Below the pieces are notes generated by a model. The model was not told where the DNA came from and searched no databases. It worked only from the letters and a program-made list of their open reading frames with translations. Shown piece by piece: positions 23 to 13,247 of a DNA stretch of 13,247 nucleotides. Position 1 is the stretch's first letter. Every line of letters begins with the position of its first letter. The position numbers were made by a program, and so were the translations under genes. Source of the DNA: a virus (Duplodnaviria > Heunggongvirae > Uroviricota > Caudoviricetes); the IMG/VR virus record IMGVR_UViG_3300023038_000160; one strand, written 5' to 3'.

Positions 23-98
23 GCCGATATAGCTCAGTTGGTAGAGCAGCGCATTCGTAATGCGAAGGTCGTAGGTTCGACTCCTATTATCGGCACCA
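23..98 (+). tRNA. thrW: tRNA-Thr, anticodon CGT (reads ACG), CCA end encoded
   Basis: 76-nt cloverleaf readable by eye: acceptor GCCGATA/TATCGGC, D-arm GCTC-AGTTGGTA-GAGC, anticodon arm GCGCA-TTCGTAA-TGCGA, T-arm GTAGG-TTCGACT-CCTAT, discriminator A plus CCA. From memory it matches the enterobacterial tRNA-Thr(CGU) gene, a known integration target. Confidence 0.9.
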
Positions 99-703
99 TC
101 AAGAAAATCAATAACTTAGCTTAACTTCTCTAAGAAATTGTATCTTCTGTTATCACTTACAAACGCCTATACGTTGTTATGGGCTTTGGTAGTGTAACAC
201 GTATGGGCGAGTAGTTCCCAGGCTCAACCTCGTAACAAGTTCCTTTGAAGCTGGAAGACGTGCCACCGTCTCTAAACCTTCTACCAAAACTCTTAGCAAG
301 ATGTTCCACACCTGGCGCGGTGTCCAATGATGCTACACGTCGTGAGACGTTGCAGAGGATAAACAGGCTAAATGATGGGAAGAGTTTTAAGTGCAATAGT
401 GGATTAAAGCCCACCTCTTCAAAACCTAACTTGATCGGGAAAGAATCAAGCTCTAGCACGGTTTCGTCCACCGGAGTACAACGGGTGCCTGATAAGAGAA
501 GAACTGCTAAGACTTCATAGCTTTTGTGAAAAAGCCCTTTTTAGTGGATACGCCTACGGCGCTTATTTTTTGGTATAACCATCAAAGGCGCTTTATGGCT
601 CCTATTGTCTTGAAAATGTATCTTTACTTGTATTGTGTTTTATGCGTAGTCTCCCTGTGTAGTATGTAACTTGTTAATTTTCATATGAATACAGAGGCAC
701 ACG

Positions 704-856
704 ATGAAAAACATTGCAGCTATCAAACGTAATAACCGCAAGATTCACGCTCGTAAGTTCCTGTCTACGCCAGAGGGAAAAGCCTGGCTAGAACGTAAAC
801 AGCGAGAGAACGAAGAAAGAAAACTCCTTAGTGAGTTGAAATGGCTTAAGGATTGA
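704..856 (+). CDS. Small basic hypothetical protein (50 aa; MKNIAAIKRNNRKIHARKFLSTPEGKAWLERKQRENEERKLLSELKWLKD)
   Basis: ATG with GAGG 9 nt upstream; below the 60-aa cutoff of the ORF track; ends 14 nt before a palindromic hairpin. Lys/Arg-rich, possibly nucleic-acid binding. Confidence 0.3.
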   Translation: MKNIAAIKRNNRKIHARKFLSTPEGKAWLERKQRENEERKLLSELKWLKD

Positions 857-869
857 ATCACCAGTAGGC

Positions 870-905
870 GCATAACACATCCAGCGATCAAAGATGTGTT
901 TATGC
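870..905. terminator. Palindromic hairpin between convergent small ORFs (GCATAACACATC ... GATGTGTTTATGC)
   Basis: 12-bp near-perfect inverted repeat with 11-nt loop; no strong T-tract, so it may be a bidirectional terminator or a protein-binding palindrome. The arm resembles the GCATTACACA motif family seen further downstream. Confidence 0.35.
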
Positions 906-922
906 ACCTGATAGTGAAATTA

Positions 923-1081
923 TTAAAGTCGTTTAGTTAACATCGCCATTGCTTGAGCAATAATTGCAACAGCGTCCATCTCTTCACTGGAAGCGATGCA
1001 AATGCGGTAACTAATAGCCACAACGAATACATCAATAACGAGAAAGTGAATAGTGTGAAGATGTTTTGAAAGTAAATGCAT
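923..1081 (-). CDS. Small hydrophobic hypothetical protein (52 aa; MHLLSKHLHTIHFLVIDVFVVAISYRICIASSEEMDAVAIIAQAMAMLTKRL), probably single-pass membrane
   Basis: Minus-strand ATG at 1081 preceded by GGAGG with 5-nt spacing; central ~20-aa hydrophobic stretch; not in the ORF track because under 60 aa. Preferred over the track ORF 937..1146, which is in another frame and lacks an RBS. Confidence 0.3.
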   Translation of the reverse strand: MHLLSKHLHTIHFLVIDVFVVAISYRICIASSEEMDAVAIIAQAMAMLTKRL

Positions 1082-1475
1082 AACTTCCTCCGGTTTGTAG
1101 ATAGGAGGATTAGAACACGCATTAAATGATGTTGCAACAATGGCAATTTACCCTAATAGTCTACTATTCACCTCAATCTACGTCAACCAATATTTGATGT
1201 AGATTTAATTTTCTTTTAAAAACAATATGTTGCTATTTGTTGGGTTTTGGAGTTAGGTTGTTTTTTGGACGTTTCCATCAAGTGTAAAGATACGTCTAGC
1301 CTTCATAGTGAGTTCAGTTACTGTCTTTTTCTCTGAAATCGGCGCAAACGTGATCATCGCTTGAGGTTGCTGCTCTTACTTCTCAAATTGTGATGGAGAA
1401 CGATAAAGGTTAGAGGGCACTTTTATTTTTTTAAGCAAGTGTATAGCATAAGAATAATCTAAAAAGGGAGGTTAT

Positions 1476-2027
1476 ATGCGCAGGTCTGCATTTGTGAGGA
1501 TGATGATTTTTACAACGTTGTTTGTAGGGGGAGCTTCTACCGCAGTTGCTAAAAACTGCAAAAAAGGAATACCTTGTGGTAACTCGTGTATAGCTGTTGG
1601 TAAGACGTGCCGGATTGGCTCTTATGCCCCTTCATCTTATAAAAATCATTCATACTCTTATCCTTCATCCTCTATTCGAAGCTCGCAATCAAATAATTCA
1701 CGAAAAACTGAAGGAGTGAAAACGACTCCTGCTGCCAAAAATTATCTTTGCCAATACTCTATTGCATCAATCGAAAACGGACGTTTAGGGGCATTACGTG
1801 TTCAGGGATACGCACAAGTAACTTTATATGCAGATAGCTTCAAGGCTAACAGATTAAATGGAACATATTTGATATCGCCAAAACTGTATGCTAACGGCAA
1901 GTTTATGATGGCAGATGATAAAAGCAAGGTTTATGCTTATGATTCTTGGCTATTAAATTTTGCAATAAGCGATCGTATCACAAGAACGACAGAACAATGG
2001 GATCGATGTAAGCTCAATCAAAAATAA
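1476..2027 (+). CDS. Secreted cysteine-rich hypothetical protein (183 aa) with predicted Sec signal peptide
   Basis: Strong RBS (AAAAAGGGAGG 6 nt before ATG); N-terminus MRRSAFVRMMIFTTLFVGGASTAVA is a basic n-region, hydrophobic core and AxA cleavage motif; mature part starts with C-x4-C-x3-C-x6-C and has two more Cys near the C-terminus; followed by an 8-bp stem hairpin. No family recognised by eye. Confidence 0.6.
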   Translation: MRRSAFVRMMIFTTLFVGGASTAVAKNCKKGIPCGNSCIAVGKTCRIGSYAPSSYKNHSYSYPSSSIRSSQSNNSRKTEGVKTTPAAKNYLCQYSIASIENGRLGALRVQGYAQVTLYADSFKANRLNGTYLISPKLYANGKFMMADDKSKVYAYDSWLLNFAISDRITRTTEQWDRCKLNQK

Positions 2028-2045
2028 CAGTTAGAGAAGCTCTTG

Positions 2046-2105
2046 TAGAGGCATTATTGAGTTATTGGTTTTAATATTTTTGTGCCTCTATGGGCTTTTT
2101 TTGCC
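2046..2105 (+). terminator. Putative intrinsic terminator after the secreted-protein gene
   Basis: Perfect 8-bp inverted repeat TAGAGGCA (2046-2053) / TGCCTCTA (2083-2090) followed by GGGCTTTTTTTGCCTTTTT; the loop is long and AT-rich, so efficiency is uncertain. Confidence 0.35.
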
Positions 2106-2787
2106 TTTTTGCAATGTAGGAGAGAGCACAGGAATCGTTAAAATTAATTATTGGGGTATTTAAGGTTATTTTCAGGTGATTTAAGGGTATTAAACTTGAT
2201 TTAATTGGTTAAAATATAAACAGATAGTTCTGTATCTTATTGATTTATAAGGTTATTTTTAAATAAAGGTAAATAAAAAATAAATAGCTATAAATACATC
2301 TTAATACCTATATCCCTTCCCTTATGGCTAGATTGCGAGAGGTGCTTAACGCGATTTTCAGCGCCCCCCGATCTGGAAAATCCAGAATCCCCAAATATCA
2401 GCAAGGAATTTCTTGCACAATCAACATCGTTTTTACCTATTAAATCATTACACAGAAAGCCTTTCTGTAATGCCTCTCACTAAACTTTCACTAAACACGA
2501 GAATGATCGGTTTTATGTCGGATCTGATGCTAGAAACAGCACCACGTCTCACAAGGGCTGTAAGCGATGAAACCAGTGTTTATGCGGGTGCGGGTCAAAA
2601 TATAGGCCAAAATCCATTTAACATAATAATCATAATATGCACTAAGGAACACATAGAACGCCTTGAATTGATGTATCATGGGAAAAGTGATGGATTTTTT
2701 ACGTAGGAGCACGAGAGGGCTTCTGTTTACTTTTGTGTGCTATGAAATATAATTAAAGGTTTTTTTGTTTTTATTGTGTGAAGTGGT

Positions 2788-3230
2788 GGATTACACAGGG
2801 GAATAGATTAAATGGTGTTCTGTTTATACAGGTTTATTTGTTAGATCAACAATTTGGCATTTCTAAACAGATGTTTGAACGTTGCCAAATGTCTTGACAA
2901 CACAAGAAAAGGGCTTGCTATGCCACGCATTACACGAAATAAGGCTGTAAAAACAAAATAAATTTTAAAATTTGCACAAACGAGAAAACTCGTTCAGAAA
3001 CAAGCAGAACAATTTTTAGCCAACAATTTCTGATGGTGTGCTGTAAGCCGCATTACACAAGGCTTTGCGAAAGTGATGTAAAAGTGAAGAAAGTAAGAAT
3101 TGCACTTTTAAGCTACTTTTTCATTGAATTTTTAGTATGGAATTACACAGGAATAAGTTAGGGATATTCTATGATTTACACAGGGAATATAGGGGGATTA
3201 TGGCACACACATAGAAAGGCATTACACAGG
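2788..3230 (+). repeat. Array of same-orientation motif copies, consensus G(C/A)ATTACACAGG(G)
   Basis: Copies at 2790-2799, 3142-3151, 3221-3230 (exact ATTACACAGG) and variants at 2929-2937, 3052-3062, 3174-3185; further variants outside this span at 4353-4364 and 4435-4444. Three copies extend to ...CAGGG(G)AAT. Irregular spacing, all on the + strand. Confidence 0.6.
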
Positions 3231-3276
3231 GTGAGTGCTATGTGACAAATGGATGTAACGGTAGGTCATAGTGAGC

Positions 3277-3416
3277 TACCCCCTATCAAGTCTAACAGGG
3301 GTTTATAAAGAATAATAAACCGATGATACCCCTATCAATATTGATACCCCTATTAACTTTGATATGACTACCCCTATCAAGTCTGATACCCCTACCCCTA
3401 TCAAAACTGATACCCG
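3277..3416 (+). repeat. Iteron cluster, core (G/C)(A/T)TACCCCTATCAA, candidate replication origin
   Basis: Direct repeats at 3277-3294, 3325-3338, 3343-3356, 3368-3380, 3385-3404 and a partial copy at 3409-3416, spaced 18-24 bp (about two helical turns), immediately followed by a very AT-rich tract (3417-3490) that could act as a DNA unwinding element. Confidence 0.65.
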
Positions 3417-3489
3417 ATAAGAATAAGTTAATAAGAATAATTAAATAATAATTAAATAATATTCTTTATATCTATATATATATGATTTT

Positions 3490-3660
3490 TTGCCTTCCGG
3501 CGTTAGCTTCACTCTCTGGCAAGCAGCCTTACTCCGCTACCTTTCGGGCTACGTTGGCTGGCCCCGTTCCGCTCACACCGAAAGCAAAGCGTTACTTTCT
3601 TCGTGTAACTATCGTTGGCGGTAACGCCCACGAAGAAATACTATTGCGCTATGCGCAGTA
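3490..3660. other. GC-rich structured patch inside the AT-rich noncoding region; candidate cos/pac-like packaging site, primosome site or structured ncRNA
   Basis: Sharp local rise in GC; nested hairpin TTCTTCGTG(3596-3604)...CACGAAGAA(3633-3641) with inner CGTT/AACG stem; motifs CCGTTCCGCTC and GTTACTTTCTTCGTGTAACT resemble, from memory, the terminase-binding R elements and adjacent sequence of lambda cosB. Not verified by alignment. Confidence 0.3.
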
Positions 3661-3722
3661 AGAGTAATCACCTAACCAATCATACTGATTGCTTATGTGT
3701 TAACTCTATCTCTCTACCTCTT

Positions 3723-3880
3723 AATTCCACTTCCTACATTCTGTAGTTGTGTAATTACTCGAAGAGAGAGCGGCTAAAGCTCAATTACACTCTGCTTTCC
3801 TCGTGTAATTTCACTAAGCCTCAATACAATTCCACTTCCTACATTTAATAACTCTCGTTATTCTCTGTAGTTGTGTAATT
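3723..3880 (+). repeat. Split direct repeat: AATTCCACTTCCTACATT x2 and CTGTAGTTGTGTAATT x2
   Basis: 18-mer at 3723-3740 and 3828-3845; 16-mer at 3741-3756 and 3865-3880; the two halves are adjacent in copy 1 and separated by a 19-bp insert in copy 2. GTGTAATT also occurs at 3809-3816 and, inverted, at 3782-3789. Confidence 0.55.
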
Positions 3881-4509
3881 GTTTTCGGTGGAAAAGCCAG
3901 AGGCGACACCGAAAGAGAATTCTGATCTTATTAATCTTATCTATCTTAGTTATCTTACTTACTTATCTTACTTTATCTACTTTATTATTAATAATAGCTT
4001 TATAAGCTCTATGTAGCTCTCTGACGCAAGAAACAGAGTTCAGGAAGGGAATCACCTTAGAAAAGTGTTCTTTGCGTCATAATGTGTTTTATGAAGGATT
4101 CAGAGGTGTTTCATAACAGGAATGTATAGAGGATACTTTAGGTAATTAAAAATAAGGGGTCTAAATGCTTCTCTAACAGCATTAAGCAGGGTAGAGAATG
4201 GAAACGCATTGCCTACACATATAAGCTCACTACAGAGCTTTACATAGCGTTTTATAAAGTGACTCTCTATCTTATATCTACAATCACCTTTTCATATACC
4301 TAACAAATACAAAATAAGCCCCTTAAATAAGCCTCTGGCGAGCTAAACAGCCATTACATAAGGGAATGTATTGCTTTTATCAAAATCTCGTTAGAACGCG
4401 TTTTAGAGCGTTTTAGACAATAATGAAGAATAGCACTACACAGGAGAGCACGAATTGTTAAGCAAAAATGTAAGTGCATGAAAAAGATCAGTTTTTTTGT
4501 GAAAAGGTA

Positions 4510-4538
4510 TTGACAAATGTTTCTTTATATGTAATAAT
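4510..4538 (+). promoter_or_regulatory. Sigma70-type promoter for the regulator/replication operon
   Basis: TTGACA (4510-4515), 17-bp spacer, AATAAT (4533-4538) with extended -10 TG at 4530-4531; a ~100-nt leader containing a short hairpin and T-run precedes the first gene. Confidence 0.5.
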
Positions 4539-4648
4539 AGGTATTAGAGGGACAGAAAACATTCTTCTCTAAATAATCAAAATCAATGCACTTTGAAGCC
4601 GTCAGGCTTGCAAGGTGTTTTTTCTTTTAACTGAATAAGGAGTTTTTT

Positions 4649-4837
4649 ATGAAATGGTTCACATCTGAGCACGTCGTTCAGGCATTTAAAAAAGGTGAGT
4701 TATCTCGCCACCAAGTAGTAATGAATCGTAATATGGCAAGGAGTCGAGGTTATCCAGAGCGAGCTGCTTGCTTCAATGAAGCACTCAAGATTATTGATGA
4801 ACTAAGAAAAAATGAAAAAGAATCTGAAACAGAGTAA
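4649..4837 (+). CDS. Small putative DNA-binding regulator (62 aa)
   Basis: Strong RBS AAGGAG 7 nt upstream; first gene after the promoter; basic helical segment LSRHQVVMNRNMARSRG. Family not recognised. Confidence 0.5.
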   Translation: MKWFTSEHVVQAFKKGELSRHQVVMNRNMARSRGYPERAACFNEALKIIDELRKNEKESETE

Positions 4838-4856
4838 AGAAGAGAAGGAGAAAACT

Positions 4857-5027
4857 ATGAGCGAAACTACAGAAAAGAAAAGACAACCACGCACTTGCTT
4901 TCATATTCCTGATGAAGTATTTCAGGTGTTATTTAAAGAAGCCAGAAGTAGACGTATCACTGTCACAGATTACATTCTTGATATGTTGAAAAGAGAGGCT
5001 GAAACACTCTCAAATAAAAGCAAGTGA
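4857..5027 (+). CDS. Ribbon-helix-helix (CopG/Arc-like) DNA-binding protein (56 aa)
   Basis: Start moved from the track's 4812 to the ATG at 4857, which has AAGGAG 7 nt upstream and avoids overlap with the previous gene; RTCFHIPDEVFQVLFKEARSRRITVTDYILDMLK fits a beta-strand followed by two helices. Confidence 0.55.
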   Translation: MSETTEKKRQPRTCFHIPDEVFQVLFKEARSRRITVTDYILDMLKREAETLSNKSK

Positions 5028-5080
5028 TTTTTATCACCATAGTAGCGCCGTAGAGCGTGATTACATCAAGGAGATTTTTA

Positions 5081-5749
5081 ATGATTAAACATACAAAACC
5101 TTTTTTAGGAATAGATTATGACTTACTAGCAATCACTTCCCTGGTGATTAACGGCAAAACAAAAGAAGTAAAACTACACCATAAGATCATTTATTCTTAT
5201 TTGTTAAGTTTATCTGGCACATACCAAAAGGTAACACCATCTTTGAAAGGTATTGGTGAGCGGTTAGGAGTAGGTACAGATCAGACGGTACGCCGTCATA
5301 TCAAAGATCTTGTTTCTTTTGGATGGTTGAAGATTGAGGAAAGGGCAGGTAGCACAAATGCTTATATTGTCCTTCCTTATGAACAAGAAGCCAAAACACA
5401 ACAAGAAGCTACCGTTAAAGCTGTTCCTGAACAGCTTCCCCCTACAGAAGATAATAAAGAGTCTTCTTTTGATGTTCTTGATGATTGGGATGCGCCTTTG
5501 CCGTGGGAGACGGAAGAAACACCTGTTTCATCAAGTGAAAAGGTAGCTAATGATAATGAGGAGGATGTGTTAGAGAATTTTGCCTCTCTTATCTGCCAGC
5601 AGAAAAACACCAGAACAGGAGGGGCATCCTTTATAGAATTTGCAACATCGTTAGCCTATAAGCACAGGTTAAAGCTACCAAATGGTATTGAGGCATATTT
5701 TTCTAAGAATTACCCAAATGTGTATGATGACTTTGATATTCCATTTTAA
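5081..5749 (+). CDS. Winged-helix protein with acidic C-terminal region; candidate iteron-binding replication initiator
   Basis: ATG at 5081 with AAGGAG 8 nt upstream (the track's 5057 start is a GTG without SD); wHTH-like segment SLKGIGERLGVGTDQTVRRHIKDLVSFGWLKIEE; D/E-rich region in the C-terminal half; located downstream of the iteron cluster. The Rep role is inferred from context. Confidence 0.45.
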   Translation: MIKHTKPFLGIDYDLLAITSLVINGKTKEVKLHHKIIYSYLLSLSGTYQKVTPSLKGIGERLGVGTDQTVRRHIKDLVSFGWLKIEERAGSTNAYIVLPYEQEAKTQQEATVKAVPEQLPPTEDNKESSFDVLDDWDAPLPWETEETPVSSSEKVANDNEEDVLENFASLICQQKNTRTGGASFIEFATSLAYKHRLKLPNGIEAYFSKNYPNVYDDFDIPF

Positions 5750-5760
5750 TAAGGAGGGTT

Positions 5761-6039
5761 ATGATTCAATATTTAGTAAAAAATCAAGTAGACAGAATTC
5801 AGTGTAATGACACAGGAAAACGCATCTACGAAACACTTGCTTACCTCTATAAAGGAAAGCCAACACCGCTAAAATATAGCGATGTGTTACACCGAGCAGG
5901 GTGCTCTGAAGATGGTTTAAAATTCTGGCTTAGACAGCTATCAAATTTCGGTGTTATAGAGATTAAAGAATTATCTTTCTCTACATTCAATCTCAAAAGA
6001 CTAGATAAAGAAATAGACTTCATCTATTCCACTCTCTAA
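5761..6039 (+). CDS. Small winged-helix-like protein (92 aa), function unknown
   Basis: Perfect RBS AAGGAGGG directly upstream; segment KYSDVLHRAGCSEDGLKFWLRQLSNFGVIEIKE resembles a wHTH recognition unit. Confidence 0.5.
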   Translation: MIQYLVKNQVDRIQCNDTGKRIYETLAYLYKGKPTPLKYSDVLHRAGCSEDGLKFWLRQLSNFGVIEIKELSFSTFNLKRLDKEIDFIYSTL

Positions 6040-6168
6040 AATCTCTCTATGTAATTAAAATATAAAAGGAAAACATTATTATGATAGTAGCTATGTATTG
6101 GTTATTGTTCTTTCTCACGTTAGAAACATATTTCGGGGTGTTTTCCTTTAAAAGAAAAGGAAAGGTAA

Positions 6169-6576
6169 ATGGCAAAAAGAAAAAACAACGTTGTTAAGAA
6201 AATAGGGGATTCAGCTTCTCTTCTAAGTAAACCTAAATCTATTCTAAGACGCAAAGACTTTAAAGAGCTAGTAACGCTCACCAAGCATAATAGCGCCCCT
6301 GGCGAATGGAAAACAGAGATCATAGAACATTCTCCCTCTGTGCCTTGTGGAGATGAATTTAACGCATTACAAGAAATCTTATCTTCAACACCTGGTGTAT
6401 TCTGGAAACCTAGAAAAAGAAAAGAGTATATTGTTGATAGCTCTGATTTACGCAAATACCAGATTTTAGGATTTGAAGACTATAACCACTACGTCGGTTA
6501 TCTCGCCACCAATGGCCTAAATAATTTAGTTCCTGAATTCCAAATTTTAGATAATGCTGATTATGGAGACTTTTAA
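6169..6576 (+). CDS. Hypothetical protein (135 aa), basic N-terminus
   Basis: RBS AAAGGAAAGG 4-5 nt before ATG; operon context; no family recognised. Confidence 0.5.
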   Translation: MAKRKNNVVKKIGDSASLLSKPKSILRRKDFKELVTLTKHNSAPGEWKTEIIEHSPSVPCGDEFNALQEILSSTPGVFWKPRKRKEYIVDSSDLRKYQILGFEDYNHYVGYLATNGLNNLVPEFQILDNADYGDF

Positions 6577-6577
6577 T

Positions 6578-6916
6578 ATGAACAAAAACACGTATGACAC
6601 AATTTATTCACTAATTAATTATTATGAGGATGATTACCTCCTGCCTTTAAACCGCGCTGAACTTGATGCATATAAAGAAAACACTCCAGCGGCACTAAAT
6701 GAGGCGTTTAAACACTGGGATTTAGCTGTGAATGCCTTTGAGCACCTCTTTAAGCGTGTAGAGATGCTCTGTAAGCGCGAAAACGCATATCTGACAGCGG
6801 ATCAGATATGGGAGTTATCAAACTGGATAGAAGATATTGAATCTGATGTTCGCTATGTAGGAGACGGACTTGTTGAACTAGCTCAACGCTTAGGCGCTAC
6901 TATCACAGAAGAATAA
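6578..6916 (+). CDS. Acidic helical hypothetical protein (112 aa from the ATG at 6578)
   Basis: GGAG 9 nt upstream of the ATG at 6578; the upstream ATGs at 6554 and 6563 lack an SD and overlap the previous gene. No family recognised. Confidence 0.45.
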   Translation: MNKNTYDTIYSLINYYEDDYLLPLNRAELDAYKENTPAALNEAFKHWDLAVNAFEHLFKRVEMLCKRENAYLTADQIWELSNWIEDIESDVRYVGDGLVELAQRLGATITEE

Positions 6917-6946
6917 AAAAAAGCAACAAAAAAGTTGTAAAATATC

Positions 6947-6975
6947 TTGACATTTCATATATTGTATGTTAGTAT
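6947..6975 (+). promoter_or_regulatory. Sigma70-type promoter with extended -10, driving a noncoding unit
   Basis: TTGACA (6947-6952), 17-bp spacer, TAGTAT (6970-6975), TG at 6967-6968. Confidence 0.5.
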
Positions 6976-6979
6976 AATT

Positions 6980-7187
6980 ATATGGGGTGATTATTTTTCC
7001 TTTATTGGTTCGATATTAAAAATTCTTCTTGTCGTTAAAGGGGAGTAAAATCTCCGCTCCCCGCTTCTCCTCCTTAAGTAAATACTGTGTCATTATTACC
7101 TCTTTTTTCCTTTGTTATGCATACATCTTGGAGTGTGCATAACATAGGGTAATTACAAAGGCGGCTTTAAATGCTGCCTTTTATTTT
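6980..7187 (+). ncRNA. Candidate ~200-nt structured noncoding RNA or regulatory leader between promoter and terminator
   Basis: No ORF beyond M-G-stop; alternative hairpins GGGGAG...CTCCCC (7040-7062); perfect 9-bp inverted repeat TGTTATGCA (7113-7121) / TGCATAACA (7136-7144); terminated by the hairpin at 7160-7178 plus T-tract. Confidence 0.3.
7157..7187 (+). terminator. Rho-independent terminator
   Basis: Stem GGCGGC (7160-7165) / GCTGCC (7173-7178) with one G-U pair, 7-nt loop, then TTTTATTTT (7179-7187). Confidence 0.55.
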
Positions 7188-7249: not shown

Positions 7250-7462
7250 ATGTTGTTCTTAAATGATAAAGAGCAAATCATCAAGTATAAAGATGAAATG
7301 CTGCGAATTAATCCACAAATTACCGAAATGGTAGCTAAATACGCTGGGTGTTCTGTCGAAGAAGTAGAACGATGTGTTGAAAAATATTTTTCTCCTTCTT
7401 CTCCGTCTACACCTTCCCTTAATGAATTAATCAAATTAAAAGCTAAGGAGATTACTAAATGA
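7250..7462 (+). CDS. Hypothetical protein (70 aa), first gene of the head-like module
   Basis: ORF with weak SD; stop overlaps the next start (ATGA at 7459-7462), implying translational coupling; a 6-bp palindrome CAACTT-AA-AAGTTG lies just upstream. Confidence 0.4.
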   Translation: MLFLNDKEQIIKYKDEMLRINPQITEMVAKYAGCSVEEVERCVEKYFSPSSPSTPSLNELIKLKAKEITK

Positions 7463-7821
7463 TTATTGATTTAGACACTCTATTTCCAGTTCGAAAGACT
7501 TTCACAGATATTGTAAGTTATTGTACTGATCCGTTTGCCTCTGTAGAAAACAAGGTTTTTGCTTCTCTTCCTGCTGATGTTGAGTGCGGAGACTTGATCA
7601 CCAGCACGGGCGCTAAATATGAATCAGGAGATGATATCTATGTTGTTATGAGTGAATTTGTAACGGCTGGAGAAAACAAGCCTGTAGATGTGCTACGTGC
7701 TAATGCTGGTCTTGTCTGCATCAAAGCTGATGCGCTGAATGCTGTAAGTGAAGCAGCAAAAACAGCATTAATTAAAAAAGGCTTCCAGCTTGAAGGGTTC
7801 CATTCTGTTTTCACTTCTTAA
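7459..7821 (+). CDS. Hypothetical protein (120 aa) immediately upstream of the capsid gene; possible decoration or scaffold-type head protein
   Basis: AAGGAG 8 nt upstream; position is analogous to lambda D relative to E, but no convincing similarity to lambda gpD is seen by eye. Confidence 0.5.
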   Translation: MIIDLDTLFPVRKTFTDIVSYCTDPFASVENKVFASLPADVECGDLITSTGAKYESGDDIYVVMSEFVTAGENKPVDVLRANAGLVCIKADALNAVSEAAKTALIKKGFQLEGFHSVFTS

Positions 7822-7839
7822 TAAAAGGAATAATAATAA

Positions 7840-8868
7840 ATGATTCTAGGTAATGATTACGTTGATTTAGCTCCTCTGTTCTCTGCGCATAGCACTAGAA
7901 ATTATCTACTGTCTACCCTTGACTTCACTGATCCGGTGGGCGTTAGTTCTCATAAAGTAGCTGTTTCCCAGCTTGTCGAAAGCAACGAATCTCTGTTCAA
8001 CAAAGAAACCTCTCGTTTCTCTTCTGAGCATAACGTGACTAAGCGTGAACAAGGTAAAGAATGGCTGATCGAAATCCCGTATTTTCTTCGTGAAGATGTG
8101 ATTCGTCCTTCTGATGTTCAAGGCAAACGTAAACCTGGCACTGATTTTCAGGAAACACTCACTGATATTTATGCTGAGTATGTTGCTAAACATCACGTAG
8201 CGTATCAGCGTACAAAAGAGAGCGTATTGGCTGCATCTCTGTTTAGTGGTCGCACCTACACGCCTAAAACTGATGATGTTCTTATCGAGTGGGGCAAGCT
8301 GTTTAACGTATCAGCTATGAAAGCCACTGTGAACGCTTCCAGCACTGACACCACGAAGATTTTTAAAGAATTTGATCAGATTGCTACTGACATTATCGAG
8401 AAAGCACAAAGCCAGGCGGCTGCTGTAGAGCGTATTGTTGTTTTCTGTAAGCCGGAAGCCTTCTCTGCAATTCGATTCTCTGCGGGTATGGCAAACGCAT
8501 TCCAGTATGTAAGCCCACTGGAAGAGGGAAATGTTGTGTATCAGCGTCGTGACCTGCTACCAGGGGTGACAGCGTTCACTATTCCAGGAACTAACATTGA
8601 TGTTATTAAACTGGTAGATCCGCTACACCTTGCACATATGACTTCTGATGCGGTTGCGGTTCCGAAGTTTGCTAAAGGCTCTAATGTATATCAGAACATC
8701 TACGGGGCTGCTTCCAGCACCTTTGAACTGATTAATTCCGCTCCTGCTGAGGTGTACAGCTATAGCTATGAATCTTCTCGTGGTGATGCTGTTAACGTTG
8801 TTACAGAGAATAGCCAGATGGTTGTAAACCACGGCGTTGGCTTCTCCGTTCAAATCACTGTAAAATAA
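7840..8868 (+). CDS. Putative major capsid protein, lambda gpE-like (342 aa)
   Basis: RBS AAGGA; length matches lambda E (341 aa); by-eye matches to the recalled lambda E sequence: RIVVFCKPEAFSAIRF vs IIVFDPKGWALFRSF, LAASLFSGRTYT vs SAVLKGKYT, FELINSAP vs FTMIQSAP, and a C-terminal FSVQ vs FVSVQ; followed by a strong terminator. Confidence 0.6.
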   Translation: MILGNDYVDLAPLFSAHSTRNYLLSTLDFTDPVGVSSHKVAVSQLVESNESLFNKETSRFSSEHNVTKREQGKEWLIEIPYFLREDVIRPSDVQGKRKPGTDFQETLTDIYAEYVAKHHVAYQRTKESVLAASLFSGRTYTPKTDDVLIEWGKLFNVSAMKATVNASSTDTTKIFKEFDQIATDIIEKAQSQAAAVERIVVFCKPEAFSAIRFSAGMANAFQYVSPLEEGNVVYQRRDLLPGVTAFTIPGTNIDVIKLVDPLHLAHMTSDAVAVPKFAKGSNVYQNIYGAASSTFELINSAPAEVYSYSYESSRGDAVNVVTENSQMVVNHGVGFSVQITVK

Positions 8869-8886
8869 TATTTTAACGTGTAATAG

Positions 8887-8932
8887 AGGCGTGGCGTGAA
8901 TAACACGCTTCGCCTTTTTTTATTTATTTTTT
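8887..8932 (+). terminator. Strong Rho-independent terminator after the capsid gene
   Basis: AGGCG-tgg-CGTG aataa CACG-ctt-CGCCT stem-loop followed by TTTTTTTATTTATTTTTT. Confidence 0.7.
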
Positions 8933-8955
8933 AAATTTTGAGAGGTGATTAAAAT

Positions 8956-9159
8956 ATGGAAGTGATTCTGAAATCAAAAAATGGTGTACACGTACATTTA
9001 GATGCTAATGATTCTAGAGGCTTGTTAAATCTGAAATATCTATGTTCTCTCCTAGATGTTCCATATGAAGGAGTAAAAGCCCGTATGTTCAGACTAAACG
9101 AGAGTATTGATCAGGCTCTACACCATTTCTTAAGTAAAGAAGGTGGTAAAAATGATTAA
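8956..9159 (+). CDS. Hypothetical protein (67 aa)
   Basis: RBS GAGAGGTGA before ATG; no family recognised. Confidence 0.45.
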   Translation: MEVILKSKNGVHVHLDANDSRGLLNLKYLCSLLDVPYEGVKARMFRLNESIDQALHHFLSKEGGKND

Positions 9160-9174
9160 TAAGGGGGATTTTAA

Positions 9175-11001
9175 ATGTTAGAAATTAACACTTCTAAAAT
9201 TAAGAATACAGTAACATTTAGTGTAGATAAAGACAGCTTAAAAAAAACGAAAGACTCTATTACAGGCTTAAAGGAATTTGCAGAAAACATCAAGCCAGCT
9301 AAATTAAGGTTTGATAGTGTCACTAAAGGCTATAAGAAAGCACAAAGCGAAGTAGACAAGATTGCTCAACAGAAAGCTAAAACAGAAAAACAGAATCAAA
9401 GAGCACAAGCTGCCGCAGCAAGAGCACAGGCAAGGCAACAGGCACAAATAGCAGCACGTAAAGAGAAAGCAGAATTAAAACTTCTCGATGTGTCAAGCTC
9501 TATCAGTGCAATGCACCGTCTCTCTGTAGCGGAACAATACAAAGCTATTGCACAGGCTAGAGAGATAGCAAAACAATATGAGCAAGGCGCTATCTCGCTT
9601 GCACGTATGAATAGCCAGATGAAACGCTTACAACAACAACAACGTAAGATTAATGGCAACAGAAAAGCTCAATTTGCCCCCGTTAAGGGAGGATCAGGGA
9701 ATTCCGCCACTATGGGCGCTCTGTTATTTGGAGGCGCTACGGCTGCTGCTGGCGTGATGGCTGTTAGTAAAACCTCTGAATTTATGGCTAATAGCTTTGC
9801 GAATGCTGAAACACAAGGAGAATTAATCCAACGTGCAAGGCTTGGCGGTGTAGACGTTAACCAGATGTACAACATTACAGAATGGGCGTATAGAAACGGC
9901 GTTGACTCTATGATGGGTGATCAAGGGGCTAGAAAATACCTGGATCAGATGAAAGATGTTAGGGAACGTGCCGCAAAATCCTACAGTGAAGCTGAATTGG
10001 TGAAAGACAAGAAAGGAAAATCTGAATGGAAAGGCGGTGATAACGGTATTAATGAACTTCTAAACATCGGTGTTATTAACAAAAGCGACCTTAAAAAATT
10101 TGCTGATAATCCGGCTGGATTAATTTCTAAGGCTGTTAATGGAATGATGAAAAAAGGGTTTTCAGACTCCCAAATTGGACAACGTTTAGAAGACCTGGGC
10201 GATGATTTGATGCTTACATCAAAATATTGGCAACGTTCCGTTAAAGATGTACAAGAAAGTATTAATCAGCAAAAAGCCTCTGGAAAATGGCTAACAGAAA
10301 CACAGCAAGACTCTATTGTTAAATTCAGAGAACTAAACAGACAGCTTTCACAGCTTTCTGATGCAAGACAAGTAGCATTTGTAGACGGCTTTATGAAATC
10401 TCTCGATCCAAAAGTAACGGAAGAGTTTATGAAAAACCTTTCTAATCTCACTCCGTATTTTACGAAGCTTGGAGAAGCTACAGGAAGTCTCTTTGAAGCC
10501 ATTATGAAGATTGTAAACTGGTTTAATCGTAATGATGATAAGACAGATGCTATTCAGAAAAATATGGGAGATGCACCGCCATTAAGCAATGAAGGAATGA
10601 AACAGAATCTTTCTAACCTCGTTCCTGACCAATATAAAGGCGCTGGCACTGCAACAACTACACCTGATAATACTCATTCCATCTTTAACACAATTAAGGG
10701 ATGGCTTTTCGATGATAATTCTTCTGTGTCAGATGTAAAAATGTCAGTCAGCGAAGCACCGATAACCAATCTCAAACAGGGTGCTTTAAATAATCTTGCA
10801 ATGACAACTCCGGCTTATAATTTATCTCCTGTGTTTAATCTGAATCCTACATTTGAAGTGGTAACAGAGGTTCCTCTTACTATTAATTCTGACACATCAA
10901 GATTAAGCGATTATGTGGATTTTACAGCGAGAGCAAGTCGGGATAGCTTCTTGAAATCATTAACATTAACCAGCTTATCAGGACAATCTAACGGCGGGTA
11001 A
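9175..11001 (+). CDS. Large coiled-coil protein with Gly/Ala-rich hydrophobic segment (608 aa); candidate scaffold, tape-measure-like or ejection-type virion protein
   Basis: RBS AAGGGGGA; N-terminal ~170 aa rich in Q/A/K/R (AQQKAKTEKQNQRAQAAAARAQARQQAQIAARKEKAELK), then GGSGNSATMGALLFGGATAAAGVMAV (~9697-9775), then an S/T/N-rich C-terminal part. Function inferred from composition only. Confidence 0.55.
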   Translation: MLEINTSKIKNTVTFSVDKDSLKKTKDSITGLKEFAENIKPAKLRFDSVTKGYKKAQSEVDKIAQQKAKTEKQNQRAQAAAARAQARQQAQIAARKEKAELKLLDVSSSISAMHRLSVAEQYKAIAQAREIAKQYEQGAISLARMNSQMKRLQQQQRKINGNRKAQFAPVKGGSGNSATMGALLFGGATAAAGVMAVSKTSEFMANSFANAETQGELIQRARLGGVDVNQMYNITEWAYRNGVDSMMGDQGARKYLDQMKDVRERAAKSYSEAELVKDKKGKSEWKGGDNGINELLNIGVINKSDLKKFADNPAGLISKAVNGMMKKGFSDSQIGQRLEDLGDDLMLTSKYWQRSVKDVQESINQQKASGKWLTETQQDSIVKFRELNRQLSQLSDARQVAFVDGFMKSLDPKVTEEFMKNLSNLTPYFTKLGEATGSLFEAIMKIVNWFNRNDDKTDAIQKNMGDAPPLSNEGMKQNLSNLVPDQYKGAGTATTTPDNTHSIFNTIKGWLFDDNSSVSDVKMSVSEAPITNLKQGALNNLAMTTPAYNLSPVFNLNPTFEVVTEVPLTINSDTSRLSDYVDFTARASRDSFLKSLTLTSLSGQSNGG

Positions 11002-11035
11002 TTCCCGCCATAACATTACAAGGAAAATTATTATT

Positions 11036-11749
11036 ATGGCGACCGCCGGGATTTTAACCATACGTGCAGCAAATACTCCAGAACAACACGTTCAGGCTGT
11101 TTACAAAGCAGAACAAGATATAAACTCTACAAAAAACGAAAATAGCAAAGCTAATAAAACAAAAGGAGAAAATGGGTTTGCTATTGTTACCAGTGGCTTG
11201 GCATCTTCTGGCAATGACGTTTATGAAAATTATATGGCACTGGCCTTTGACAGTGTTGACGATGTGAACGTGAGACGTTCGGCAGATGTTACAAGCTACC
11301 CCGTAGAAAATGGTGCTACTGTGTCTGATCACGTTCAAATTAAAAACAATAAGTTTTCTCTTAAAGGAAGGATCACTGAAACACCGATTAAAAGCGATCC
11401 TGGCTTGTTAAAGAGTGCAGGGGTGAACGGGAACAGAAGATCATTAGCTATCGACTACCTGAATCAGATTATGGACAGTAGACAGCCTTTTCTTCTTGTT
11501 ACAGAAAATAAAACTTTTGAGAACGTTGTTTTAACAGGAATCGAATACACAGAAGAGGCAAGCGAATCCCTGGTATTTGATCTTAGCTTTGAGCAAATAA
11601 GATTAGTTTCTTATGGCACTGTGAACACTGTAGCTATCAAAACACAGCCATCTAAGAACATCGGGGCTAATATGAAAAAACGTGTTAACACTGAAAAATC
11701 AAGTAGTGAAGGTGAAGACACTATTACTCCTGCCTTTAAACAGGAATAG
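11036..11749 (+). CDS. Hypothetical protein (237 aa), possible virion-associated protein
   Basis: RBS AAGGAAAA; same operon as the 608-aa gene; no family recognised. Confidence 0.5.
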   Translation: MATAGILTIRAANTPEQHVQAVYKAEQDINSTKNENSKANKTKGENGFAIVTSGLASSGNDVYENYMALAFDSVDDVNVRRSADVTSYPVENGATVSDHVQIKNNKFSLKGRITETPIKSDPGLLKSAGVNGNRRSLAIDYLNQIMDSRQPFLLVTENKTFENVVLTGIEYTEEASESLVFDLSFEQIRLVSYGTVNTVAIKTQPSKNIGANMKKRVNTEKSSSEGEDTITPAFKQE

Positions 11750-11830: not shown

Positions 11831-13165
11831 CTATGGCGTTGTTTTACGCCTTAAATTTGATTTTTTATTGATTGATAAGCCTTTCTCTATTTCAGGGTAG
11901 CGTAGAAGCTCAATATATTTTTTAAGCTCTACTGGAGAAGCTGCATTCTTGCTATATGTGCGGAATGTCTCTGTATTGCCGCGTGTATGGCCCAGGAGAA
12001 GGGCGATCCTGTCTTCTGGAATTTGATTTCGATCAAGAAGCTGTGCTACTCCGTGTCTCAGAGAATGAAACACCTTCCTTTCTGTTCCCTTTTCCCCTAA
12101 AGCCTTTCGTTTAGCTCTTGTAAATCTCTGCGTGTGCCACGTAGAGCGTTTACCATCAGCACGCTCTGTAATGCTGGCGTGATAGAACAAAAAGCCATTA
12201 TGAGGCTTTTCACGCAGCGACAACACCAACGGAGTGATAAGGCTATGTACAGGCACAACACGTGCCGCAGCTTTCGTTTTTCCCTGTGTGATTTCAAAAC
12301 ACAGCACACCTTCGATCTCTTTCACATCGTCTATTGTGAGACTTGCTATCTCATTGATCCGCATACCTGTATATAAACCGATAAGACACAAAGCTATCAT
12401 TTCTTTGTTTTCTGCTGAATTACCGGAAAATACTTGCAACACCTGCAATAGCTCTTTGTTAGAAAATGCCTCGTAGCTCTCTCTACTTTGTGCCACATCA
12501 AGCCTATGCCCTCGCCAGGGGGAGAGCGCCCTTTCTGGCGCATCGTGGTAACGTGATGAAGCTAACTCCCATAGCTGGGCCATTGGGCTGATATAATTTG
12601 CAATTGATTGTTGTGAAAGGGTTTTTTGCATGTGTTCAATCCAGCCTGTAACAGTGGTGCGGCTTACATCTTGCAATGCAATATCAGGCTTTTTACGGTA
12701 GGAGAGAAACATCTCTACCGCTTTTCTTGCCTTAGCTAAAGTGGCTGGCTTCTTCTTCGTGCTGTTAATAGTCAGGTAGATTTCAAGAATTTTAAGCAAT
12801 GATGGACACGAAGACGCTGTATCTTGCATTCTGGTAGCTGTTTTGGCGTATTTAGCCTTACTGCGTAACAGTTCCAGCGTGTTCTCTATTGTGCTGTTTA
12901 CAGGAGCGACACTCTCGCGTAAGCAATGGTATTCATCTGCAATCTGATCACGCTTTCTACGTGCAACACGAAGATTACTTGTGTGCAGACTCCTGACAAA
13001 CGTCCTTTTTCCTTCAAAAAAGGGCTGCATATACACAGGCAGCGTGATCCTTAAATAGTAGTTACCGTAAGAATCACAGATTATGTATTGATTGGGCTTG
13101 TATCTCATAAACTCCCCGGCTAAAGTGTCGGAGCGTTTGTAATGTGAAAATTGATTGTAACGCAT
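11831..13165 (-). CDS. Tyrosine recombinase / phage-type integrase (444 aa) with N-terminal arm-binding-like domain
   Basis: Catalytic signature visible in the translation: TGMRINEI (Arg), HSLRHG (His-x-x-Arg), LLGHTRGNTETFRTYS (His and catalytic Tyr). An alternative start at 13108 (MRYKPNQ..., GGGGAG 3 nt upstream) is possible. Codon composition looks more GC-rich than the rest of the island. Confidence 0.85.
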   Translation of the reverse strand: MRYNQFSHYKRSDTLAGEFMRYKPNQYIICDSYGNYYLRITLPVYMQPFFEGKRTFVRSLHTSNLRVARRKRDQIADEYHCLRESVAPVNSTIENTLELLRSKAKYAKTATRMQDTASSCPSLLKILEIYLTINSTKKKPATLAKARKAVEMFLSYRKKPDIALQDVSRTTVTGWIEHMQKTLSQQSIANYISPMAQLWELASSRYHDAPERALSPWRGHRLDVAQSRESYEAFSNKELLQVLQVFSGNSAENKEMIALCLIGLYTGMRINEIASLTIDDVKEIEGVLCFEITQGKTKAAARVVPVHSLITPLVLSLREKPHNGFLFYHASITERADGKRSTWHTQRFTRAKRKALGEKGTERKVFHSLRHGVAQLLDRNQIPEDRIALLLGHTRGNTETFRTYSKNAASPVELKKYIELLRYPEIEKGLSINKKSNLRRKTTP

Positions 13166-13247
13166 AGAAAATGATAATTTTTTCTATAAGATTCAATCAA
13201 TTAGTAATGGTCGTAGGTGATGGCATTAACACGAGATTAATCGAGTG

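Follow-up and report, generated by a model that had tools for sequence, protein, structure and literature searches.

Introduction

The PLEs of Vibrio cholerae are small integrative islands that parasitise the virulent T=13 myophage ICP1, replicate from a Rep/iteron replicon and make small T=4 capsids. PLE encodes no capsid protein itself, reshaping the ICP1 coat with the external scaffold TcaP, and neither a tape measure protein (TMP) nor a tail tube initiator is known from it. The helper answers with a chimeric nuclease, Odn, which has borrowed the DNA-binding domain of the PLE protein RepA and cuts the PLE origin (PMC8263062). The cfPICIs go beyond re-sizing the helper capsid: they have an HK97-fold capsid protein of their own together with a full set of head and DNA-packaging functions (small terminase, portal, protease, head-tail connectors, alpA and Pri-Rep), and take only their tails from the helper. 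SaPIbov5 reportedly encodes Ccm, a satellite homologue of the helper major capsid protein (MCP) that has been linked to the formation of small capsids; this system has a Gram-positive host, depends on a temperate cos siphophage and does not involve genes for a TMP or a tube initiator. Here we analyse the IMG/VR virus record IMGVR_UViG_3300023038_000160, a stretch of 13,247 nucleotides (hereafter the window) in which an operon at 7,250-11,749 encodes a lambda-E-family MCP next to tail proteins. We propose, with a probability of about 70%, that this operon makes up the virion module of a ~13.2-kb satellite which integrates at the tRNA gene thrW and parasitises virulent phi92-like myophages.

The island resembles PLE in its small size, its integrative nature, its Rep/iteron replicon and its likely dependence on a virulent T=13 myophage, in the presence among phages of an Odn-like chimera bearing its Rep DNA-binding domain, and in its MCP, which has the ICP1 coat of PLE capsids (PDB 8g1r) as a structural neighbour. 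Unlike the cfPICIs, it has none of their head and packaging set, yet it carries tail genes.

The element itself has been predicted before. Starting from the nucleases of three phages (Inny, Muut, Mt1B1_P17), which are odn homologues, Barth, Dunham and Seed (2023) found tRNA-associated Escherichia coli elements of ~13 kb that combine an integrase with Dec, MCP, TMP and a baseplate protein, contain neither terminase nor protease nor most of the tail genes, and were proposed as novel satellites, 224 of which are listed (PMC10448857). The label 'Dec' is given there to the 120-aa gene of the operon, and Table S6 of that study contains CP040269, the closest relative of the window; because the two are 95.6% identical, the element was already known, and the island is a member of a published family of predicted satellites. 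The window shows the features of this family, namely a length of ~13 kb, a tRNA gene with att repeats, an integrase, the Rep/odn match and the gene set (Dec being a probable assignment). An initial annotation of the operon had been made without this prediction and without the island context of att sites, integrase, origin and mimic. What is new here is the identification of a mimic of the terminal-repeat boundary of the helper, the gene-by-gene homology to phi92, the selection data and the recognition of family members in Klebsiella, Enterobacter and Serratia as well.

Results

A lambda-E-family capsid protein and the genes upstream of it

We found that the 342-aa protein is, by family match and predicted structure, a lambda-E-family MCP with the HK97 fold. 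It matches Pfam Phage_cap_E (PF03864) over residues 19-341 of 342 (E=2.4e-13; 50.3 bits, with a cut-off of 22.9) as well as phrog_29, 'major head protein'. An AlphaFold2 model of moderate confidence (20 homologues, pLDDT 60, pTM 0.63) has a long spine helix at residues 103-136, and a Foldseek search of the PDB with this model returned phage HK97-fold capsid proteins almost exclusively among the top 50 (E 5e-12 to 1e-5), including those of phiTE, Bas63, Sf14, ICP1, chi/YSD1 and lambda gpE. The likeness to lambda E on which the initial annotation was built is therefore confirmed. The alignment with the phage MCP spans the full length at 22% identity (E=1e-8), and the island protein is somewhat nearer to Pakpunavirus MCPs, such as that of phage P7-1 (9zbi).

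The surroundings of the MCP gene are also as first described. The small genes before it show the expected sign of translational coupling, with the stop codon of the 70-aa gene and the start codon of the 120-aa gene overlapping in ATGA, and a terminator-like hairpin followed by a T-run stands behind it (Table 1).

The suggestion that the 120-aa protein is a decoration protein stands as probable on the basis of weak profile matches and genomic position, while the structure prediction that was to decide it gave a poor model (AlphaFold2, pLDDT 50, pTM 0.37). In phi92-like phages, too, a decoration gene lies directly 5' of the MCP gene. In a profile search of the PDB, three of the top six matches were decoration proteins (9zbi_G, 9c2d_J and 9ncf_J, at E 0.1-0.7), all three from phages whose MCPs are nearest to that of the island, and hhalign against a profile of phi92-like, gp123-like cement proteins gave E=0.0012 at a probability of 19%. 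P0214, a remote relative of the 120-aa protein, matches Pfam HDPD, the lambda gpD family, at 7e-4, which is below threshold. The 120-aa protein itself has no direct match to the Pfam families of gpD (PF02924) or gp123 (PF26074), and BLASTP found no similarity to the phage gene in the same position. Collectively, these data suggest that it is a probable capsid decoration or cement protein.

A tape measure protein and a tube initiator of phi92 type

The 608-aa protein had been placed in the broad class of scaffold, tape-measure and ejection proteins, and its matches narrow this to a myophage TMP of the gp134 type: it matches phrog_16051 at 1.2e-54 and phi92 gp134 (PDB 21vq_V) at 1e-39. The Gly/Ala-rich hydrophobic segment noticed in it earlier lies at about aa 170-197. 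In BLASTP comparisons with a Justusliebigvirus TMP, residues 1-66 are 56% identical and the C-terminal part (173-608) 28% identical, with a central part that is ~69 aa shorter in the island protein; compared with phi92 gp134, the island TMP is 51 aa shorter overall. The TMP of the Klebsiella island is 40-42% identical to TMPs of Phapecoctavirus.

The gene that precedes the TMP gene encodes a 67-aa protein and corresponds in position to a 75-aa gene of phage JohannJBalmer, although BLASTP found no similarity between the two products; it is possibly a TMP chaperone. The 237-aa protein encoded downstream of the TMP is a Dit-like tail tube initiator by its matches to PF21821 (3.4e-29; 101.9 bits, cut-off 24.2), to phi92 gp135 (PDB 21vq_N, 2.1e-78) and to the tube initiators of phiTE and Pam3, and it is 60% identical to its JohannJBalmer counterpart. 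This gene is present only in the E. coli lineage and not in the islands of Klebsiella, Enterobacter or Serratia. In Klebsiella and Enterobacter, the corresponding slot (13331-13800 in loci L003 and L007) holds two small genes of 42 and 92 aa. The operon had originally been called 'head-like', a description that fits its head genes and leaves out the half that encodes tail proteins.

Four virion proteins point to a virulent phi92-like helper

In phi92, the head is a T=13 shell of 775 copies of gp124 with beta-tulip cement trimers of gp123, which holds a genome of 148.6 kb, and the tail contains a trimeric TMP, gp134, and a hexameric tube initiator, gp135, under a tube of 24 rings (PMC13450770; PDB 21uy, 21vq). 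The island encodes homologues of just four helper virion proteins, and these follow the helper gene order: cement (probable), MCP, TMP and tube initiator. The corresponding genes of JohannJBalmer run from decoration protein and MCP to, further on, the 75-aa gene, TMP and tube initiator, so that the island presents the same order in condensed form. Divergence from the phi92 virion is uneven, the identities being 22% (MCP), 28-56% (TMP) and 60% (tube initiator). In tblastn searches with TMP and tube initiator, the top-ranking matches were to Phapecoctavirus and Justusliebigvirus, virulent myophages of ~145-150 kb. Since MCP, TMP and tube initiator are homologues of gp124, gp134 and gp135, the helper is likely a virulent phi92-like myophage of the Stephanstirmvirinae (Justusliebigvirus, Phapecoctavirus). 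The lambdoid helper proposed in the initial annotation was ruled out, as every homology link leads to Stephanstirmvirinae.

Several 'Campylobacter phage' records of ~143-151 kb with Campylobacter jejuni as the stated host (MG065639, MG065645, MG065656, MG065689, MG065650 and MG065690) match in the same way as E. coli Justusliebigvirus and Phapecoctavirus, and some of them also carry the terminal-repeat-boundary element described below; these host labels look doubtful.

We scanned the open reading frames (ORFs) of at least 50 aa in the window against Pfam, PHROGs and NCBIfam. No match to a portal, prohead protease, scaffold or terminase was found, in agreement with the earlier remark that a coat protein is encoded here without a cognate portal or protease. 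All other phi92 virion genes, including those for tube, sheath and baseplate wedge, are absent from the island. The same ORFs contain no cfPICI hallmark genes, a conclusion also reached in PMC10448857, and no families matching the P4-like hallmarks Sid/Psu/Delta and alpha primase-helicase.

A mimic of the terminal-repeat boundary of the helper

In a DNA search with the left half of the island, we identified a 46-nt element (Table 1) with 44 nt identical to a non-coding site in about 60 Stephanstirmvirinae genomes. The match includes an exact 29-mer, which did not turn up in any of 200 shuffled versions of the window. In the phages, the element occurs once per unique genome, or once per terminal repeat where the record holds both. 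The direct terminal repeats (DTRs) of phi92 are annotated at 1-343 and 148270-148612, and the element, at 318-363, straddles the inner end of the repeat; the boundary sequence is ...GGGGGGCGCTGAAAATCGCGTTA/AGCACCTCTCGCAA, the slash marking the boundary. Klebsiella phage phi1_175008 also has a terminal duplication of 343 bp that ends at the same motif, and in both phages the left and right DTR boundaries share GTTR/AGC, as expected for a cleavage site.

The element is conserved among islands. Its core, GTGCTTAACG...CCC...AAATATC, is kept in E. coli, Klebsiella and Enterobacter. Of 108 related loci searched with an nhmmer profile, 63 contain the motif, in each case on the same strand as the MCP gene; where that gene stands at locus position 10001, the motif is found ~5-6 kb 5' of it, and most loci without the motif are short contigs. 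The spacer within it tracks the host genus: islands and phages of E. coli both have CCCCCCGAT, and Klebsiella islands share CCCCCATTTT with the Klebsiella phage. In the islands of Klebsiella and Enterobacter, a short integrase-like ORF stands immediately to the left of the motif.

We interpret this element as probably a packaging-site mimic, that is, a putative pac-like site for recognition and cleavage by the helper terminase. The mimic appears to be unreported, since PMC10448857, which predicted the family from Rep/odn homology, makes no mention of terminal repeats and never uses the term 'terminal repeat'. A different role, as a regulatory or replication site (bound, for example, by an early phage protein) through which the island would sense infection or recruit phage replication, seems rather unlikely to us. 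The location of the element just 5' of the first early genes in the phages would suit such a role, as would its location in the island, within extended non-coding DNA and ~900 nt away from the iterons; however, its core is centred exactly on the experimentally annotated end of the phi92 DTR and on the end of the 343-bp duplication of the Klebsiella phage, and the occurrence of GTTR/AGC at both phage DTR boundaries is what a cleavage site predicts.

Two observations concern the DNA around this position. In related islands, the end away from the full integrase has a short ORF with a Phage_integrase domain (183-205 aa) and a gene of ~66 aa (L003 2768-3585 in Klebsiella, L007 3955-4726 in Enterobacter and L006 2932-3689 in Serratia), immediately left of the boundary motif except in Serratia, where no motif was detected; the E. 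coli window lacks this pair. In the window, a 97-aa ORF with a TTG start (2413-2706) follows on the right of the mimic; it has no family matches and no RefSeq annotation and is probably non-coding, and this stretch would fall inside any island equivalent of the 343-bp DTR of the helper, if one existed.

Integration site and layout of the island

The window covers all of a chromosomal island at tRNA-Thr (thrW) except attR. The attL core is the 18-nt 3' end of the tRNA, CTCCTATTATCGGCACCA (81-98), and the same 18-mer occurs again, as attR, 6 nt past the window end in the corresponding locus of E. coli strain 1500 (L001, NZ_CP040269). This recurrence sets the length of the island at ~13.2 kb and indicates that the window is complete but for attR. 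A shorter repeat, GGTCGTAGGT at 67-76 and 13209-13218, was considered as the att core and dropped; the true core is the 18-mer, with its partner outside the window.

In E. coli, the chromosomal flanks are proA-thrW on one side and yagP'/paoD on the other. Strain 1500 is the closest genome match, with 95.6% identity across the entire window, and at least 80% of the window is present in 80 of 5,426 complete E. coli genomes. The GC content of the island is ~38%. The integrase stands at the same end in all related islands of Klebsiella, Enterobacter and Serratia, and the stretch from about 100 to 4600, on the left of the island, varies between strains, is gene-poor and largely non-coding.

Within this left part, the segment 849-2094 is absent from many otherwise near-identical E. 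coli islands and looks like a variable cargo slot. A 183-aa ORF at 1476-2027 has a signal-peptide-like N-terminus and matches PHROGs without assigned function (phrog_2578, 2e-17). Directly past the tRNA, the DNA at 100-700 has a higher GC content (~45%) and overlapping ORFs on both strands without family matches, and it may be the remnant of an older insertion at thrW.

Replication and regulatory region

The iteron array is a probable replication origin, and islands of both E. coli and Enterobacter have the same iteron 12-mer repeated at the equivalent place. Between the iterons and the first operon, the long non-coding DNA contains at 3721-3880 a further set of direct repeats (TTCCACTTCCTACATT... 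and CTCTGTAGTTGTGTAATT), for which Rfam gives no match; indeed, no Rfam match was obtained anywhere in 2000-4700 even at E<=1, and the tRNA is the sole non-coding RNA found in the window.

The first operon begins with two small genes that probably encode regulators; the 55-71-aa product has a weak match to phrog_582 (Arc-like repressor), and this region has ~86% nucleotide identity to phage muut. The 92-, 135- and 120-aa products of the three conserved genes that follow rep have no family matches in Pfam, PHROGs, PADLOC or NCBIfam.

The promoter of this operon has a 14-mer, AGGTATTGACAAAT, in common with a promoter-like site 5' of the prohead protease gene of JohannJBalmer. More generally, the promoter-like sites of the island (4504-4517 and 6941-6975) resemble those before helper structural genes (L002 4427-4522 and 2761-2857): the 14-mer is common to them, and ATCTTGACA followed by ...TGTTA occurs in both. 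This resemblance may reflect a generic strong sigma-70 architecture. As regards a late-promoter motif common to island and helper, only generic sigma-70-like similarity and the one 14-mer were found, which is not conclusive.

Table 1. Features of the window, by position (dN/dS values are relative to the closest relative of the window)
Feature	Position	Strand	Remarks
tRNA-Thr (CGT), thrW integration site	23-98	+	ARAGORN and Rfam
Mimic of the helper terminal-repeat boundary	2327-2372	-	reads ...GGGGGGCGCTGAAAATCGCGTTA/AGCACCTCTCGCAA; extended conserved motif at about 2310-2410
Iteron array (TACCCCTATCAA-type repeats)	3280-3418	+	repeat families D1 and D6
Sigma-70-like promoter, TTGACA-17-AATAAT with upstream TG	4510-4538	+	precedes the regulatory/replication operon
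Pair of small conserved genes (62 aa; 55-71 aa)	4649-5027	+	kept in Klebsiella and Enterobacter islands
Rep-like initiator with N-terminal HTH_36 DNA-binding domain	5057-5749	+	Pfam HTH_36 at 1.2e-7; PHROG replication-initiator families at ~1e-10
Three conserved genes (92, 135 and 120 aa)	5761-6916	+	equivalent positions in Klebsiella and Enterobacter islands
Promoter-like site, TTGACA-17-TAGTAT	6947-6975	+	pattern match only
Leader of ~270 nt ending in a terminator-like hairpin (7157-7181) and T-run	to 7190	+	just 5' of the head genes; pattern match only
70-aa protein, first gene of the head module	7250-7462	+	kept in Enterobacter islands; dN/dS 0.20
120-aa protein, candidate decoration/cement protein (gpD-like, phi92 gp123 equivalent)	7459-7821	+	directly 5' of MCP; dN/dS 0.12
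Major capsid protein, 342 aa, lambda-E family	7840-8868	+	phi92 gp124 homologue, 22% identical; dN/dS 0.11
Intrinsic-terminator-like hairpin and T-run	8889-8925	+	3' of the MCP gene
67-aa protein 5' of TMP	8956-9159	+	kept in related islands; dN/dS 0.05
Tape measure protein, 608 aa	9175-11001	+	homologue of phi92 gp134 (659 aa); dN/dS 0.08
Dit-like tail tube initiator, 237 aa	11036-11749	+	homologue of phi92 gp135
Tyrosine integrase (DUF6538, SAM-like and catalytic domains)	11831-13165	-	Pfam and PHROG
Partial duplicate of the tRNA-Thr 3' half (GGTCGTAGGT), start	13209-13218	+	attR core just outside the window

Distribution of the family and selection on the module

Relatives of the MCP are found in E. 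coli, Citrobacter, Klebsiella, Enterobacter, Cronobacter, Serratia and Sodalis, and a single E. coli MCP cluster (98% identity) comprises about 2,800 sequences. In Klebsiella, Enterobacter and Serratia, islands built in the same way occupy other chromosomal sites; of the window genes, tblastn recovered 12 in the island of Enterobacter, 9 in that of Klebsiella and only 4 in that of Serratia. The shared backbone consists of the two small genes, rep, the three genes of no known family, the ~70-aa and ~120-aa genes, the MCP gene, a ~63-aa gene, the TMP gene (615-629 aa) and the integrase gene. Purifying selection acts on the module: in comparison with the closest relative, dN/dS ranges from 0.05 to 0.20 across the MCP, TMP, 120-aa, 67-aa and 70-aa genes (Table 1), which indicates that these five genes are real.

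Accessory genes differ between related islands and their flanks. They include a Dam methylase gene inside the Klebsiella island (L003 4394-5083) and a gene for an HNH protein (L007 2311-3036), and a LlaJI-type restriction system, accompanied by a DNA methylase, adjoins one Enterobacter island (L008 15548-20569).

E. coli K-12 has the cryptic prophage CP4-6 at thrW. The island could in principle be a decaying temperate-phage remnant of this kind, with virion genes that are functionless leftovers, and the shared integration site, the low GC content and the gene-poor, strain-variable left part are what one would see in that case. We consider this highly improbable and rejected it on synteny and dN/dS. 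In Klebsiella and Enterobacter, the compact backbone of ~12 genes is found again at other sites, as is part of it in Serratia, and none of the five module genes is disrupted, all of them being under purifying selection. Moreover, the homologous phages are virulent myophages of ~148 kb rather than temperate phages, and retention of the same four virion genes throughout the lineages is not what random decay would produce.

A phage nuclease bearing the DNA-binding domain of the island Rep

The stretch of the window at 4845-5449 is 86% identical in DNA to phage muut. The N-terminus of muut gp154, a protein of 332 aa, matches the DNA-binding domain of the island Rep with 123 of 139 positions identical, at ~98% identity over Rep aa 9-128, and gp154 has in addition a second HTH_36 domain and a C-terminal MUG113/T5orf172 nuclease domain of GIY-YIG type; a relative of gp154 is present in phage Mt1B1_P17. 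This architecture is the same as that of ICP1 Odn. The gp154 gene lies two genes 3' of muut gp151 (L014 1844-2131), whose product has a DUF7325 match and a weak LAGLIDADG match, which suggests a cluster of homing-endonuclease-type genes at this spot.

The existence of an Odn-like phage nuclease directed at the island Rep specificity shows that the island harms phages, and this raises the question of whether it is a defence element that is never mobilised. In that event, the homologues of capsid protein, TMP and tube initiator would act as dominant-negative or decoy subunits, or the boundary mimic would titrate the helper terminase, and the bacterial population would be protected without transduction of the island. 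The helper-like termini of TMP and tube initiator could indeed let these proteins enter helper tails, and no packaged form of the island was found. On the other hand, pure interference has no need of an integrase, att sites, Rep, iterons and a conserved boundary mimic, all of which mobilisation requires; an MCP only 22% identical to that of the helper is a poor candidate for poisoning co-assembly; the different integration sites and the several host genera mean that the island family does move; and no PADLOC defence model matches. With regard to the latter, PADLOC found no defence system among the ten island proteins scanned, which did not include MCP, TMP, tube initiator and integrase, and the only two matches, both weak, linked the 62-aa protein with PDC-S05, a candidate family (E at least 0.002). 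We therefore judge exclusive defence to be unlikely. A defensive role is nevertheless compatible with a satellite of phi92-like phages, given that known satellites do both.

Discussion

Our analysis supports the proposal that an integrative satellite of phi92-like myophages has its virion module in this operon. The initial annotation had offered two readings of the module, redirection of a helper capsid or an anti-phage decoy; a satellite or anti-phage role remains the best reading, while the type of helper it assumed does not hold. On the satellite model, infection by the helper would lead to excision of the island and to replication driven by Rep and the iterons, and the helper terminase would recognise the boundary mimic and package island DNA. 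The island MCP and decoration protein would form a shell sized for ~13 kb, probably of T=4 or smaller, compared with T=13 for the helper. Known satellites of 11-18 kb use T=4. This shell would employ the helper portal, and possibly also the helper scaffold and protease, although such use is uncertain because the MCP is so distant from its helper counterpart. The island TMP and tube initiator would be built into tails otherwise made by the helper, with their helper-like termini keeping the contacts with helper partners, and the resulting tail would be about two tube rings shorter than that of the helper, since the TMP is 51 aa shorter than gp134, whose 659 aa correspond to a tube of 24 rings. 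Helper parts would thus be diverted and the yield of helper lowered, and for this reason the island could double as a population-level defence.

A number of observations weigh against this proposal. Regarding the proteins, the MCP is only 22% identical to that of the helper and nearer to Pakpunavirus MCPs, no repressor or inducer logic was identified in the island, and the reason why a satellite would carry its own TMP is unexplained. Regarding the mimic, BLAST and pattern searches found no counterpart of the left DTR boundary in the island, only the site of right-boundary type, which leaves open how both DNA ends would form; the nhmmer search of 108 loci did not detect the motif in Serratia and several other long loci; and the 46-nt element could serve as a regulatory or replication site. 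Regarding mobilisation, no excised, circular or virion-derived copy was found, as 23 metagenome contigs of ~12-18 kb lack a terminal overlap, seven of the nine metagenome contigs mapped onto the window carry its tRNA end, that is, chromosomal flank, and the IMG/VR matches are contigs of 19-76 kb whose mostly isolate-genome-style identifiers make them look like provirus calls in bacterial genomes. Finally, we found in the literature no experimental follow-up of the prediction and no characterised satellite of phi92 or Phapecoctavirus.

It is tempting to speculate, although we hold this to be doubtful at present, that these islands are the first satellites to replace both size-setting proteins of the helper. 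They would use their own MCP, with cement protein, for a small head, and their own TMP, joined in the E. coli lineage by the tube initiator, for the tail, would take everything else from a T=13 myophage of 148 kb, and would be packaged through a single boundary mimic. If true, this would represent a new hijacking strategy, between that of PLE and P4, in which the helper coat is re-sized, and that of the cfPICIs, which make a complete head of their own.

The satellite model also has implications for the phages and their hosts. If it is correct, large virulent phi92-like phages have a widespread satellite in E. coli and its relatives, and the Odn-like nucleases encoded by some of these phages are the mark of an arms race that parallels the one between PLE and ICP1 in Vibrio. 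In this regard, phi92-like phages are in development for therapy against encapsulated and avian-pathogenic strains, whose treatment the island could make less effective while moving DNA between strains. Lastly, the boundary mimic is a specific cis element, and it would be the first clue to how the terminase of phi92-like phages recognises its DNA.

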